A stretch of 64,000 nt of DNA from Zootoca vivipara (GCF_963506605.1 NC_083285.1:34348001-34412000); one strand, 5' to 3'. Positions 10,651 through 26,145 are shown, counted from the first letter of the stretch. The notes: a model not told the origin generated them from the sequence alone. Numbers and translations: made by a program.

Positions 10651-11938
10651 AGGATCCACTCAGTCCCATTTGGTTACCATTGTGGTTACCCATCCTCGCT
10701 TTGGATCATCAAAGTGAGTAGCTGTTGCCTTAAAAGTGTTTACCTGAGCATTCAGGGTTGTATCCAGCTAAGTAGGGTAAGCCCACTGAAAGTAGTGAAT
10801 CCATTATCACCATATCCAATAATTTCAATCTTTCCTTTCTGCATGGAACTAGCACTGGATACAAACCCCCTGCAAAACAGAGATGTATATAAGTACCTTA
10901 ATCATTGTTCATGCTCAATTAAAAAAAAATAACCATTCAGATGAAATCCTAAACAATCTTTCAGAAGACTGGGTTTTGCCACCTTTTGGTTTTGCTTCCT
11001 GGACCCATCTGTTATTGTATCCCGGTAATTAAGTTGTCAAACAATCCTGCAAGGCTTGGACAGGTTCAGTTCCAAAGCAACCTTGCTTCAAAATGTCTTT
11101 CTTAATTAATTAAAATTGCCACTTCATGGGTAAAAAAAATATTCAGGAAGGTATTGACTGCAACTTCAGAACAGAACTTTGATAAATTTAATATTGATGG
11201 AATGTGGATTTAGTCACATAATGTATTTCAGTTTTCCATGAAACTGTGGGTATTGTTATGACAAAAATAATAGATTAAATAAACGCAAGCTTTTCATGAT
11301 AGTATATAGAAAACACACTCATTCATGTCTACTACTACTCATGTCCTTTGTCCAAAAATGAAGGGACGAATGAAGGTGTGGGGAACCTGTGCAGAAGTTG
11401 TTGGATTCCAACTCCCATCAGTCCTGGCCACCATGGCTCAAGGTTAGGGATAATGGGAGCTTAGCAGCACCCAGAGGGCCACATATACACCACCCCTAAT
11501 TTATATGTACAAAGAAAAGAAATCCTGAATGTTAGAATTAAGCTTTCTACTTTGAAACATCTCTTAAGGCTCTCTTGAATTGTCACTTATCCAACAGCAC
11601 AGATGTAACAAGGTTTATTTTAACTGGCAAAATAGCAGAAGTCTGGGGAAATGTTTTGCATTTGAATCGAACAATTCAGTGTCTGTACATCCATGGTGGA
11701 AAATTGCTTGATAGAATGAAAGTGCTCTAGAGGGAGAATAGTATCTTTTTTCAAACTAATTAACAAAATGATTTACAAAGTGTTAATTAGCTGACAAAAA
11801 AACCTTCCCAGTGTAGTAAGTGTTTTGATGTTAACACACTTTCCTCATGTGCATCCTTAAATGCAAAGAACATTGTTTAGGTAAGCAGTGAAGGTGAGAC
11901 TGACTAAAACAGATTGAATGGTGATCAGTAATCAAAAT

Positions 11939-12113
11939 AAAATAAATTCCTTGCAGTAGCACCTTAGAGACCAACTACGTTTGTTGTTGGTATGAGCATG
12001 CACACGAAAGCTCATACCAATAACAAACTTAGTTGGTCTCTAAGGTGCTACTGGAAGGATTTTTTTTTAATTTTGTTTCGACTACGTCAGACCAACATGG
12101 CTACCTACCTGTA
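11939..12113 (+). mobile_element. Penelope-like element terminal repeat with inverted 5' arm (fold-back)
   Basis: About 53-bp inverted arms (4 mismatches), tail cagaccaacatggctacctacctgta, TSD ag(t/c)aatcaaaat at 11927-11938 and 12114-12125. Confidence 0.75.
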
Positions 12114-13044
12114 AGCAATCAAAATGTCATGCTAGAAGAGGGAGAGGTGGCCCCTCCGTAATTGGATGGCAAGTGATGGAACTTAGAAGTTCTCCAGATA
12201 AAATGCATCCAGTATTAAAACAGCCAAAGTTTACTTGAGTTATGTAAGGGATTAATCTCTATTTACAAAACACAAAGACTTGTAAATAATGTCCAAACCA
12301 ACCTTAGAGCTATTAGGATCCATTTAACATTTTTAAGAAGCATCAGCAGAAATGTAGATTTTCAAGATATGATGAAAAGTTAAGGACATTGGATTGCAAC
12401 CATTTCGTTTCTAGTCAAATTACACCAATGAAAATCTATAGGCTTACATTAGTCATATCCATTCATTTCAATAGGTCGACTCTGAGAATGACAGGCATTG
12501 AATACAACCATACAGATCATTCAAAGACTGAGCAATGACAGTTGGGAGTGGAGAGCCTTAGGAGGTAGATATTTGATTAACTGCCCATGACTGGATTGGG
12601 AAGATGAACTTTTTTTAATCACACGGAATGCGTGCTATCACTAGCGTGCTATTATTTTGGCCCTGATGGTGAGCTTAACAAGCTGCCAGGATCTAGAGCT
12701 TTGTGAGTATCACTGTGACTCTCAGAATCAAGGGAAATGAAATTCTGATATGCTGATGCTGAGAAGCATCTCTAACCTTGTGTCAGCTTGCAGCTTGAAT
12801 GACAGCAACTGAATCTGTGCTATATAGGCAGGGTGGATGGCAGAACAGAATAGCAGACAAAACCTCATGCTCACAGCTAAGCCTTCAGCCTTCTGTGACA
12901 TATGAAACACTTCTTAGCATACAGGAACAACAGTTATATGGGAGCCCGAGAGCACATTCAAAAACCTCATTCTGTTATTCAAGTGGCACTGTCTACTGAT
13001 AACAGGCAAGAACATCTGACATGCTGTGCCTTTTGATCTTTCAG

Positions 13045-13269
13045 ATAAACAAGGCAAAGCCTCCTCAGTGGAAAATGACCCTTCTAAATATCTGTGACCT
13101 CCTAAGCAACATAAACAACCAGGAAGAGGATGTGGGTGATGTTGAAGAAGAAGACCTCCTGTCAAGAAGACAGTTTCCCTCTACTCTCGATGGCTCCACT
13201 TTGGAAGCTTTGTTGACATTGTACCAGCTTCAGAAAGTCTGCCACAGCAGAAACTTTCAGCACTGGGAG
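13045..13269 (+). CDS. NTS: NTS coding exon 3 (INKAKPPQWKMTLLNIC...VCHSRNFQHWE)
   Basis: Acceptor tctttcag|ATA, donor GAG|GTAAGT, 225 nt. Carries the conserved WKMTLLNxC and CHSRxFQHWE motifs of pro-NT/NN. Confidence 0.97.
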
Positions 13270-14071
13270 GTAAGTCAAATCATGGTGGGAACCCAAGTTT
13301 TGCTTTACTTTGGTCATATTACTATGAAAAGCCATTTTTATTCATACAGTGCACAGATGAAATTATTAGTATGTTTTTCCTAGTTAGCAAGGTATTGAAT
13401 GAAATTGTCCATAGTTTAACAGGCCCTCAGGCTAGAATTTTTATTCCTAGATTAGGGATGTCATAGTTTTATTCCTACCGGTAAATGATGAAGGAAATTA
13501 TATGGGACCCAATCTCGCCCTAAAACTTCAGAGTCTGACTTCTCAGCCACAGTATGCAAAGTAATACTTTAAAAGACAATACCTTAAAAATGTACAAAGT
13601 CCCATCTCCTTGACTACTGCAAATCCCCAACTAGTTCCCATGCATCTAGAATTAGATGGAAAGAGTTCAAAAGGAGAGGGGTGCAGGTAACATCCACTTA
13701 ATCTTTATTTCTGCATGCAATAAGTTTCTGATCCTTAGGACATGAAGGATATTATTTTATTATTCATATCATTTCTATACAGCTTTCGATTTTAAGGGGG
13801 GGGGCATCTCAAAGCGGTTTACAACACATCAAAACATCAAATAAAACAATCCAGAATAAAACATTCAAATATTGGAAGGAAGTCAGATATAAATTATACA
13901 TTCGAAACAACACAATTAACAGGAAACTAAAATATCTTCTTAAATATTTCAGTTGGAGTTGGGGGAAAACCCCTATTGGGTAATGGGAGTTGTTGGGGAA
14001 GGCTAGTGTAATTGTTGACAATTCTATAGTAATTGATTAGCTCATATTACATGGTATTAACTTTAGGCAGC

Positions 14072-14110
14072 ATAGATGATAGGTAGATGACAGAGATAGA
14101 TTAGATAGAT

Positions 14111-14154
<44 letters not shown>

Positions 14155-14164
14155 TAGATAGATA
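14072..14164. repeat. (GATA)n microsatellite in NTS intron 3
   Basis: Direct reading. Confidence 0.92.
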
Positions 14165-24144: not shown

Positions 24145-24255
24145 TGTATGTTCATTTGCAAACAAGCTATTTATTCATTTTGTTTTATACTGGCAATCAC
24201 TACACCTTTCAGCAAATTCCCCATAATGGAAACAATTAAACATAAAGAATAGTGT

Positions 24256-24379
24256 AATAAGTGTGCATGCACACGAAAGCTCATACCAAAATATAAACTT
24301 AGTTGGTCTTTAAGGTGCTACTGAAGGAATTTTTTTATTTTGCTTTGACTCAGACCAACGCGGCTACCTACCTGTAACT
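24256..24379 (+). mobile_element. Penelope-like element terminal repeat, 5'-truncated, no inversion
   Basis: aagtgtgcatgcacacgaaagctcatacc...cagaccaacgcggctacctacctgtaac with TSD ataaagaatagtgt at 24242-24255 and 24380-24393. Confidence 0.8.
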
Positions 24380-24567
24380 ATAAAGAATAGTGTGATTTCT
24401 TAGAGTCACTTCTTGCTCTCTGACAGCTTATTTACCGTTCTAGCCTATATTTTTGTGAGCCTGCATTTCTGTAGGCTTGTGGCAGATTAAAAATATAAGA
24501 GCCATGCTGCATCAGACCAAAGGGCCATTTATTTCAGCATCCTGTTCTCTCAGTGGCCAACCAAAGG

Positions 24568-24732
24568 CATACCCATCAACTGCCCTGATTTGACCAGGAC
24601 ATCTCAGAATTACAGAAGCCTTCCCAGCTTCTGATTGGTTCCCAGTGTGCTCGGTGTGCTGACAAAACTTTGGGAGTGGGGCCTCAAAAGATGTGCAACC
24701 CGATTTCCCTCTGCAGCATGTTGGAGGGTATG
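24568..24732. mobile_element. hAT-type MITE nested within an older CR1-type fragment (about 24495-24915)
   Basis: Imperfect TIRs CATACCCATCAAC / GTTGGAGGGTATG. The host repeat sequence resumes after 24732. No clean TSD. Confidence 0.55.
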
Positions 24733-25523
24733 GAAATGTCCATGGGAAGCCTGCAAGCAGATTCTGAATGTAATAACAGCCTCCCCGCTAGTGAATCCTA
24801 GCAACTGGTGTTCAGAGGAATATGTGCCATGTGAAGGTTTAATTTCCTTTTTTGTGTGTCTTGGATCTTCCAACATTCAGCTCTTCAGTGGATGTCTTCA
24901 AGTTTTAGTGCTATGAGAGAGGAAGAAAACTTTCTGCTGGGAGATAATTGATACTGGCTGGTTCTTCGTGCCAGAATAATGTGAAGACTATTACTAATAG
25001 GTACATCTGCAGAAAGCATAAGTCAAGGATGGGGAACATGTAGCTAGCCAGAGATTGTCAGACTCCAACACTCAGCCCGCTAAGCTATCATGATAATTGT
25101 TCAGGGGTTATGTAAGTTGTAGTTCATGAATATCTAGAGGACCACAGGTTCCTTATCTATGGGATGACGGCTAATTATCCATGTCGGGGTGGGTGGGTGG
25201 GTTAATTCCAGTCATTTCTCCACATGGTGTTTCTTACATGCCCTTGGATAGTTCCATCACACACACAAGAATTATTTTTATTTGACCTTTAAAAATGGTA
25301 TAGATTACTTTTCAAACAAAATGCTTCCCAAAGTGATTTTACAAAATACAACCATAATACAACTTTAAAATCAAGTTAGGAAACAGACATTTCTTTATAG
25401 TATAAAACTTTACAAAAACCAGCATGAACGAACGTAACCATGCAAACAAACAAAACTAAAACAAAACCCAGATATAGCACAAAGTAGCCATTAAAAGCGG
25501 CAACTAAAATAGAGATTTTGAAG

Positions 25524-25575
25524 TCAAAATAAAAATAAAAATAAAAAAATCCAACACGGCTACCTACCTGTAAAT
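25524..25575 (+). mobile_element. Minimal Penelope-like insertion (inverted piece plus terminal 25 nt)
   Basis: ccaacacggctacctacctgtaa preceded by the reverse complement of the element's T-rich tract. TSD agattttgaag at 25513-25523 and 25576-25586. Confidence 0.7.
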
Positions 25576-26145
25576 AGATTTTGAAGGCCTGCTTAAAGGC
25601 GTTTAGGGGCAGAGCATCCCCACCTCCATGTAGAATTGAGTTCTTTTACTAGAACCACTAGAACTGAATATCAATGAGCCTTGGGTCAAATTTGGGCATA
25701 CATTTTCTTCCAGTAAAAGCTTAGCTTTTTAATAAATTTGCATAAGGATTCTGTCTAAGGATTAGAAATTAGAATTCCAAATTTCCTAGAGTCTCAGAAA
25801 TGGAACTGATCTGTAATCACCACCACCACCATCTTCCTAAGGCTGGTTCAAGCATCTTCCATTGCTCAGCACCAGATTTAGGGCAGTATGGCCACAGGGT
25901 GCCAAACTAAGGGGATGCAAAATTGAGTAGATCCATAATTGAGAGGATCCATTTGGGGGCACAAAAATTTGGACTCGGACAGGAAAGATTGCCAAAGTCT
26001 GCCCCTGCATTGCTTAGATTCTGACCCCACACATTGTGGGTTGGGAACCTCAGGCCCTGGAGCCAAGTCCAAGCTTCTCTGTTTTACACCCAGAATTCTC
26101 CCTAAACTACAGTTCTCACCAGCCCTGCTTTACAGCCTCCTCAAG

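Follow-up and report, generated by a model that had tools for sequence, protein, structure and literature searches.

Results

The window analyzed here, a 64,000-nt stretch of the Zootoca vivipara genome (GCF_963506605.1 NC_083285.1:34348001-34412000), carries four insertions that end in one and the same terminus, CCAACRYGGCTACCTACCTGTAA. We consider it quite probable that a young Penelope-like element (PLE) of the Neptune type gave rise to them as short copies, whose 5' ends pile up across the genome at base 1 of a hammerhead ribozyme (HHR) through run-off; this likely happens because the reverse transcriptase (RT) primes just upstream of the start of the open reading frame (ORF) on a sense transcript that is uncleaved and runs off its capped 5' end. 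An exact-match search placed the terminus at 12092, 18179, 24355, and 25551, always on the + strand, and gave no match in 100 shuffles, in agreement with an earlier note on this DNA that described four insertions with a common terminus and orientation. That note also reported target site duplications (TSDs), and these indeed flank every insertion, with lengths of 11 to 14 bp.

Positions in the element are counted from h1, the G of GTAT, which is the first base of the hammerhead and belongs to stem I. Copies 1 and 2 contain an inverted arm. In copy 1, the most diverged of the three copies that bear HHR sequence, the 5' TSD (11927-11938, + strand, 12 bp with one mismatch to 12114-12125) has an A-rich end that overlaps the inverted arm (11939-11997, - strand). 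This arm runs from h31 to about h94, its start being the "tail" site in the U-tract, 39 nt inside the terminus, and shares 2 nt with the direct arm (11996-12113, + strand), which extends from h17, within stem II, to the terminus and is followed by the 3' TSD (12114-12125, + strand). In copy 2, 12-bp TSDs on the + strand (17996-18007 and 18203-18214) enclose an inverted arm (18008-18088, - strand, h8 to h90) with the entire 14-nt stem II palindrome (18070-18083) and a direct arm (18088-18202, + strand, h16 to the terminus), 114 nt of which are identical to the young copies L031 and L068. Copy 3 (24256-24379, + strand) is a simple truncation in which three junction bases precede a 5'-truncated direct arm from h11, between 14-bp TSDs (24242-24255 and 24380-24393, + strand); it retains, on the + strand, stem II (24261-24274), GAAAGCTC (24275-24282), a predicted cleavage site (24282/24283), and the 3' strand of stem I (24283-24286). 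Copy 4 is a 23-nt stub: its direct arm (25551-25575, + strand, from h108) comprises only the last 23 nt of the element plus 2 nt and follows an inverted stub (25524-25550, - strand), read from the sequence as a short piece of the U-tract with slipped repeats, the TSDs of 11 bp lying at 25513-25523 and 25576-25586 (+ strand). Blastn detected no further copies of the family in the window.

The HHR remnants previously noticed in three of the four copies are real and lie where they had been placed. The statement that no copy keeps CUGA also holds: CTGANGA is absent from both strands of copies 1 and 2 and from the + strand of copy 3, and its absence from the minus strand of copy 3 and from copy 4 was judged by eye. 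The direct arms of the three HHR-bearing copies start within 7 nt of one another, as had been observed, and in the overall distribution, which has its mode about 15 nt further upstream, these copies represent the tail at stem II. Because they are nearest to three different subfamily references, copies 1 to 3 are likely independent insertions. In simulations, four same-strand termini in 13.5 kb were expected in about 1 genome window at mean density and in about 7 windows at the density of the start of C1, and on C1 the strand was shared in 15 of 24 neighbor pairs within 15 kb. Since about 1 to 7 such windows are expected, clustering and orientation do not constitute a separate phenomenon; the same-strand cluster is compatible with chance and requires no special cause. 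A local burst or hopping behind the cluster was rejected in view of the three subfamilies and of this expectation.

The exact 3' terminus occurs 14,651 times in the genome (7,343 on the + strand and 7,308 on the - strand). An older subfamily (L221, L224, and L229) has a different terminus and escapes the pattern count, so that the family is larger than 14,651; some relatives have a CUU cleavage triplet. The unit of the element is about 3.03 kb long, some tandem pairs being spaced 3030 bp apart, and its order is as follows: a TATA-like box (-31 to -24), h1, the 38-nt minimal HHR, the U-tract, the terminus at h129, and an ATG 8 nt past the terminus of the preceding copy; in longer copies, the 3' untranslated region (UTR) and the ORF are located upstream of the HHR. 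At h80-105 (window 24329-24354), the U-tract and a CAG that resemble a 3' splice site are kept in all subfamilies.

That the insertions belong to a PLE, as the earlier note had proposed, is borne out by the ORF domains, the tandem organization, the inverted arm, and the tail. The anticipated link to an ORF with RT and GIY-YIG domains was confirmed on L087, where the Pfam matches to RVT_1 (E = 3.5e-12) and GIY-YIG (E = 4.7e-5) both exceeded the cut-off. A partial tandem, or pseudo-long terminal repeat (pLTR), organization was seen in L101, and the element's own 3' end precedes 51 of 52 ORF starts. The ORF has a CNKPRCQLC (CX4CXXC) linker upstream of a VYAI..CQQC..YIG motif, and a CX2-5CXXC linker between RT and endonuclease (EN) is given as a mark of Neptune and Nematis in the text of PMC8557442 available to us. 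We therefore classify the element as a putative EN+ PLE of the Neptune type, its clade being assigned by the linker motif only; since both clades have the linker, Neptune is preferred over Nematis because it is the clade reported in vertebrates. A protein search, in which 149 of 699 candidates were scored, returned many open frames of 925 aa with 100% identity over 254 aa, on the basis of which the family appears young and likely active.

Breakpoints were mapped in 196 copies from two sets, neither of which was chosen by 5' end: the first 100 termini on C1, all recovered, and 100 loci chosen by three flank letters, 30 from the top of each of two lists and 40 more from one of them, one row whose flank equaled its neighbor's being skipped. 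Two loci of the second set that duplicated the first were removed, and 2 of the 3 units of one tandem array were dropped. Both sets lean to young copies because the exact terminus was demanded. Four copies (L038, L062, L157, and L092) were rescored by hand as passing, the element continuing past an internal deletion or mismatch. Chance matches leave an uncertainty of 1 to 3 nt on each breakpoint, and the results pertain to one family in one genome.

The intact hammerhead that the earlier note predicted, GTAT-CTGAAGA-A-GTGTGCATGCACAC-GAAAGCTC-ATAC, was found exactly in longer copies. This genomic 38-mer has all the elements of a minimal type I HHR, namely, CUGANGA, GAAA, an NUH triplet, helices I and II, and a palindromic helix III. 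Among 219 complete motifs, the main variation in h5-38, besides CpG decay (h26-27), falls at the free positions N7 (A in 199, C in 14, and T in 6) and H17 (C in 207 and T in 11), a confinement that would fit selection on catalysis. Rfam hammerhead models matched neither the intact motif nor the window, in which the scan gave only sub-threshold hairpin-type microRNA matches, on inverted repeats; we do not count this miss against the minimal type because the motif has no normal helix III. The CUGANGA...GAAA..UC core is kept on the sense arm in 100 of the 196 copies (128 when either strand is considered) and the exact 38-mer in 69, which does not support the view that the insertions are catalytically dead as a rule. 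Self-cleavage was rejected as the origin of the 5' ends, since a single copy of the 196 ends in the predicted cleavage region (h33-37).

The breakpoints are far from uniform, as had been suspected, with an 8-fold enrichment in the HHR (h-2 to h38 versus outside; p = 2e-37). The direct-arm break hazard per nucleotide (n = 196) was 0.0018 at h106-39, 0.0054 at h38-28, 0.0186 at h27-13, and 0.022 at h12-3; it reached 0.094 at h2 to h-2 and was 0.009 at h-3 to h-20 and 0.003 at h-21 to h-130. The single commonest breakpoint is h1 (15 copies), the rate in the h-2 to h2 peak being 5.0 times that in stem II and 10.3 times that just upstream, and the peak is seen in both sets (11/98 and 26/98). Short stubs, which end at most 20 nt from the HHR start or below, make up 145 of the 196 copies; over the whole genome, the arms with an end exactly at h1 number 5,745, compared with 1,436 at h4. 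The earlier note had located the breakpoints at stem II, which is correct for the direct-arm junctions of inverted copies (33/81) but not for the genome-wide mode, which lies at h-2 to h2, on the 5' side of the fold and at its far edge. Among 47 simple truncations, 20 break at h-2 to h2 and 5 in stem II (p = 3e-4 for stem II against inverted copies). Since inverted copies join there and simple truncations rarely end there, stem II is a joining site and not a stopping site. In L002, L022, L106, L114, L141, and L190, the junctions stutter, two or three pieces of h1-40 being repeated, which suggests that the cDNA end re-annealed repeatedly before joining.

These data bear directly on the mechanism put forward in the earlier note, according to which the folded HHR stalls the RT or makes it switch template at stem II and thereby mass-produces dead fold-backs. 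The enrichment of breaks inside the HHR, the joining of inverted copies in stem II, the perfect fold-backs on the stem II palindrome (5/196), and the internal deletion of part of the HHR in L062 and L038 are all in line with a stall. An RT block is expected on the 3' side of a helix, here at h27 or h39, whereas the mode is at h1 and simple truncations avoid stem II. Furthermore, the predicted monomer fold is weak (-6.8 kcal/mol, z = -0.44) and the core is kept in about half of the copies, as detailed above. Two comparisons served as controls. First, we examined 52 ORF-start junctions from 47 loci at the top of the protein-search list, in which the HHR is met on a second pass: of the 48 that reach h38, only 1 breaks in h-2 to h38, compared with 113 of 173 on the first pass (p = 9e-17), and the remaining 47 go through, with no stop at h-2 to h2 (0/48). 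Second, the two arms of first-pass copies are coupled. The direct arm breaks in h-2 to h38 in 59 of 62 copies with a short inverted arm but in only 6 of 25 copies with an inverted arm that starts at the tail site and extends beyond the TATA box (p = 3e-11), and a blast-based version of this count gave 69/76 versus 2/30. The count excludes 7 copies with a full inverted terminus, and its fuzzy motif probably mis-sorts about 8 complex short copies as "long", which weakens rather than inflates the contrast. Since a fold should stop each arm independently, coupled arms point to a template end. The second-pass and arm-coupling results largely refute the stall, which we now regard as very unlikely.

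If the template ends at h1, the question is how this end is made, and a transcription start is what the flanking sequence suggests. TATA boxes canonically lie at -31 to -24, and all 32 reference copies displayed have a TATA-like octamer that ends 23 to 24 nt before h1, the letters of the spacer differing across subfamilies; the pyrimidine-rich run that follows the octamer ends in an initiator-like (Inr-like) TCACT or TCAGT, and in one subfamily the box reads both ways. A TATA and TCACT pair has been noted in a rotifer pLTR (in the accessible part of PMC3846280), and the promoter of Drosophila Penelope is in the pLTR according to the portion of PMC2377424 at hand. In addition, a hand count of the first 100 junctions listed showed that the letter before h1 is G in 68, A in 21, and C in 11, compared with G in 18, C in 14, and T in 68 before h4 as a control (Fisher p = 8e-13). 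In 30 h1 loci examined, 17 of 18 G cases had unrelated upstream sequence; the extra G is not present in the partner in L229, L231, and L234, and in the 196-copy sample a G precedes 9 of 55 breakpoints at other positions. Such an extra G is what an RT leaves after copying a cap, as described in the text of PMC4038843 that we could access. In L230, an ORF-start sequence is joined directly to G + h1, which looks like a jump from the RNA 5' end to an internal site.

The end at h1 might instead result from processing, either by a 5'-3' exonuclease halted at stem I or by cutting at a GT splice donor. In favor of this, the edge of stem I coincides exactly with h1, where the sequence opens with GT, a pyrimidine tract and CAG are found near h105 in all subfamilies seen, and PLEs are known to have 5' UTR introns (as far as the same portion of PMC2377424 goes). 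Against it stand the conserved TATA-like box at the canonical distance and the extra G, as well as the small size of stem I, which has only 4 bp. Moreover, when copies with h13-h24 spliced to the CAG were sought, three matches appeared, none with a precise junction, and three RNA runs with the same species label, of which about 6% each was read, contained no start, end, or splice signal, with no splice joints among those listed. We therefore judge processing to be unlikely and keep to a transcription start at h1.

Inverted arms are present in 78 of the 196 copies, together with the 30- to 40-bp tail: the outer end lies 31 to 39 nt inside the terminus in 61 of the 78 (mode, 36), and the inner end lies at h-2 to h2 in 31 and further 5' in 16. 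The ends of the two arms overlap by 0 to 8 nt in 38 of 62 cases. TSDs have a mode of 12 to 13 bp among the 101 called, the RNA matches the target over about 2.3 nt where priming occurs, and the letters past the terminus track the subfamily's own ORF-side sequence (CC, 50:3 versus CT, 9:84). The single-arm copies L231 and L249, which consist of G + h1 to the U-tract only and then flank, with a TSD evident in L231, are products of the second priming site alone. For rotifer Penelopes, self-priming on an antisense template at a palindrome was proposed (PMC3846280, in its accessible part), and head-to-head copies could arise here in the same manner. Palindrome-centered junctions do exist in 5 of 196 copies, and the TATA-like box is bidirectional in one subfamily. 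However, in 41 of the 59 cases without a tie (p = 0.004) it is the inverted and not the direct arm that extends further 5', an outcome beyond the reach of a single fold-back and an argument against self-priming on an antisense template; in addition, both arms stop at the sense-strand start site with an extra G, and the outer end of the inverted arm is fixed at the second priming site. We thus consider self-priming extremely unlikely and favor two cDNAs copied from sense RNA.

The long copies require a template without an end at h1, because they continue seamlessly into the element's own 3' end and the next h1 is almost never a stop. Such a template might be a circle; alternatively, the long copies might stem from multimers produced by tandem read-through, or the short cDNA might be transferred repeatedly to the 3' repeat in a retrovirus-like manner, and we take this alternative seriously while leaning slightly against it. 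Tandem loci with a 3030-bp period, the jump in L230, and 4 further second-pass arms of the 48, which break at h-3 to h-13, speak for multimers or transfer. With a dimer transcript, or with a second transfer as efficient as on the first pass, many second-pass arms should stop at h1, whereas none of the 48 does so within h-2 to h2, and the arm coupling points to a property of the template. In L267, L268, L269, L274, and L275, full ORFs lie head to head with both arms longer than one unit; these pairs are the long counterpart of the short inverted copies.

Elsewhere in the window, an open frame of 407 aa (38837-40060, - strand) looks like the large last exon of what we take to be an MGAT4C-type glycosyltransferase gene, the four insertions lying 13 to 27 kb beyond its 3' side. 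A nested 105-bp inverted repeat (98%) of 95-bp units at 31785-32056 is likely a non-autonomous DNA transposon. Two inverted 295-bp fragments at 52246-52540 and 58731-59025, 92% alike, correspond to the 3' end of an RTE-like long interspersed nuclear element (LINE).

Discussion

Based on these results, we propose that RNA polymerase II starts at h1, so that the HHR would form the first 38 nt of the RNA. The enzyme would nick both target strands about 12 to 13 bp apart and thereby prime two cDNAs, one at the terminus, with about 2 nt of target/RNA pairing, and the other at the U-tract 36 nt upstream. On a linear capped RNA, the two cDNAs would reach about 130 and 95 nt and end at h1, in many cases with an added C. 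Joining of the two antisense cDNA ends through an overlap of 0 to 8 nt, often in the self-complementary stem II, would yield head-to-head copies such as copies 1 and 2, and joining of one cDNA to the target would yield copies such as copy 3. About 30% of insertions would come from a template without an end at h1, either a tandem multimer or a circle arising when the HHR cleaves and the ends are ligated, and this endless template would give rise to long and partial-tandem copies. The stall predicts neither the extra G nor the TATA spacing that this scheme accommodates.

Several observations weigh against this interpretation. The edge is not absolute, as 9 of 60 first-pass arms break at h-3 to h-20 and the four second-pass arms mentioned above break just upstream of h1. 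If the template is a circle, an RNA:DNA hybrid could keep the HHR unfolded on the second pass, and the second-pass control is weaker for it; the arm-coupling control is unaffected by this objection. The stem I complement (4 nt) is never used, with no junction at h35-40 in 81 inverted copies, although a pure longest-microhomology model favors it. In several cases (L236, L241, L248, and L249), the partner sequence also accounts for the extra G, the excess is weaker in the 196-copy sample (16/30, one of them a substituted long copy), and an extra G shows that the template ends there without proving that it is capped. In the RNA reads aligned to the region, molecule starts do not accumulate at h1; most of these reads are host read-through of short copies, 80 to 95% of them running on into unlike sequence. 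Finally, the evidence comes from a single family, the search for a control PLE family with a 15-nt Poseidon HHR motif having returned no match.

Earlier work has already described this type of element and its minimal hammerhead, as well as the inverted arm, the tail, and the TATA/Inr motif. Like Neptune PLEs (Craig et al. 2021, PMC8557442, compared on the part available), the present element has a single ORF with RT and then a C-terminal GIY-YIG domain, two cysteines within the motif, a CX4CXXC linker, pLTR partial tandems, an inverted 5'-truncated arm, a 30- to 40-bp tail, and an HHR in the pLTR; unlike them, as far as that text describes them, it is dominated by short stubs and has clear TSDs. 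Likewise, the metazoan minimal HHRs described by Cervera and de la Pena (2014, PMC4209133, in the sections accessible) share the type I core with a short helix I, a long helix II after an extra nucleotide, and a loopless palindromic helix III, and they occur as thousands of solo motifs and opposite-strand pairs for which a circular template was proposed. Those sections contain no breakpoint or start-site map, whereas here the HHR lies at the likely 5' end of the RNA, and it is the uncleaved RNA that we propose as the template of short copies.

The closest biochemical parallel is Poseidon_Ac from the green anole (Frangieh et al. 2024, PMC11167929, as far as its text was accessible), for which, in vitro, both strands were extended from two internal sites matching the tail, the product length followed the template's 5' end, and HHR mutants left it unchanged. 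Two-site internal initiation, a length set by the 5' end, and dispensable HHR cleavage are thus common to both systems. Poseidon_Ac belongs to a different clade, its HHR overlaps the ORF start, and priming occurs 111 to 118 nt inside the ORF, in contrast to just upstream of the ATG here; that text reports no target/RNA homology at priming, compared with the short match found here.

In the twin priming of L1, two cDNAs copy different parts of one RNA. A second-strand primer on a U-rich stretch, microhomology joining, and an extra G at the capped end (the latter according to the same part of PMC4038843) are features in common with L1, but here the two cDNAs overlap by about 95 nt, a stretch that is thus copied two times. 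Non-LTR retrozymes (bioRxiv 10.64898/2026.07.22.740005, from the part seen) are also short HHR-bearing derivatives of PLE pLTRs and form tandem arrays, whereas the present stubs are dispersed, single or head to head, and without a promoter; the copies in the window, being single or head to head and without the core, are not tandem units with a complete HHR. The exception is L077 (3350-5150; C1:2777329-2779145), a retrozyme-like tandem array of a 598-bp internally deleted unit in which the ORF start is fused to the GIY-YIG end and each unit has a full HHR and a TATA box. Our search of the open-access literature, with subscription journals, Repbase, Dfam, and supplementary figure S2 of PMC11167929 outside its scope, found no comparable breakpoint map; that figure, on genomic-copy coverage, may already show a 5' pile-up.

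The role of the HHR, the use of a sense versus an antisense template, and the circularity of the template are stated as open in the accessible parts of PMC4209133, PMC11167929, and PMC3846280. A likely active family with thousands of near-identical junctions brings to these questions of PLE transposition both intact ORFs and base-level predictions, namely, a start at h1, priming sites 36 nt apart, and two template classes. We tentatively suggest, at somewhat less than an even chance, that the whole PLE cycle can be read in this one genome, the capped linear RNA, with the hammerhead at its start, giving about 10,000 "strong-stop" stubs through priming on two strands, and a 3-kb circle from hammerhead cleavage and ligation being the sole source of full-length, partial-tandem, promoter-bearing copies. 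If so, the ribozyme would act as the switch that sets productive templates apart from dead ends, and sense RNA would be the origin of head-to-head pLTRs.

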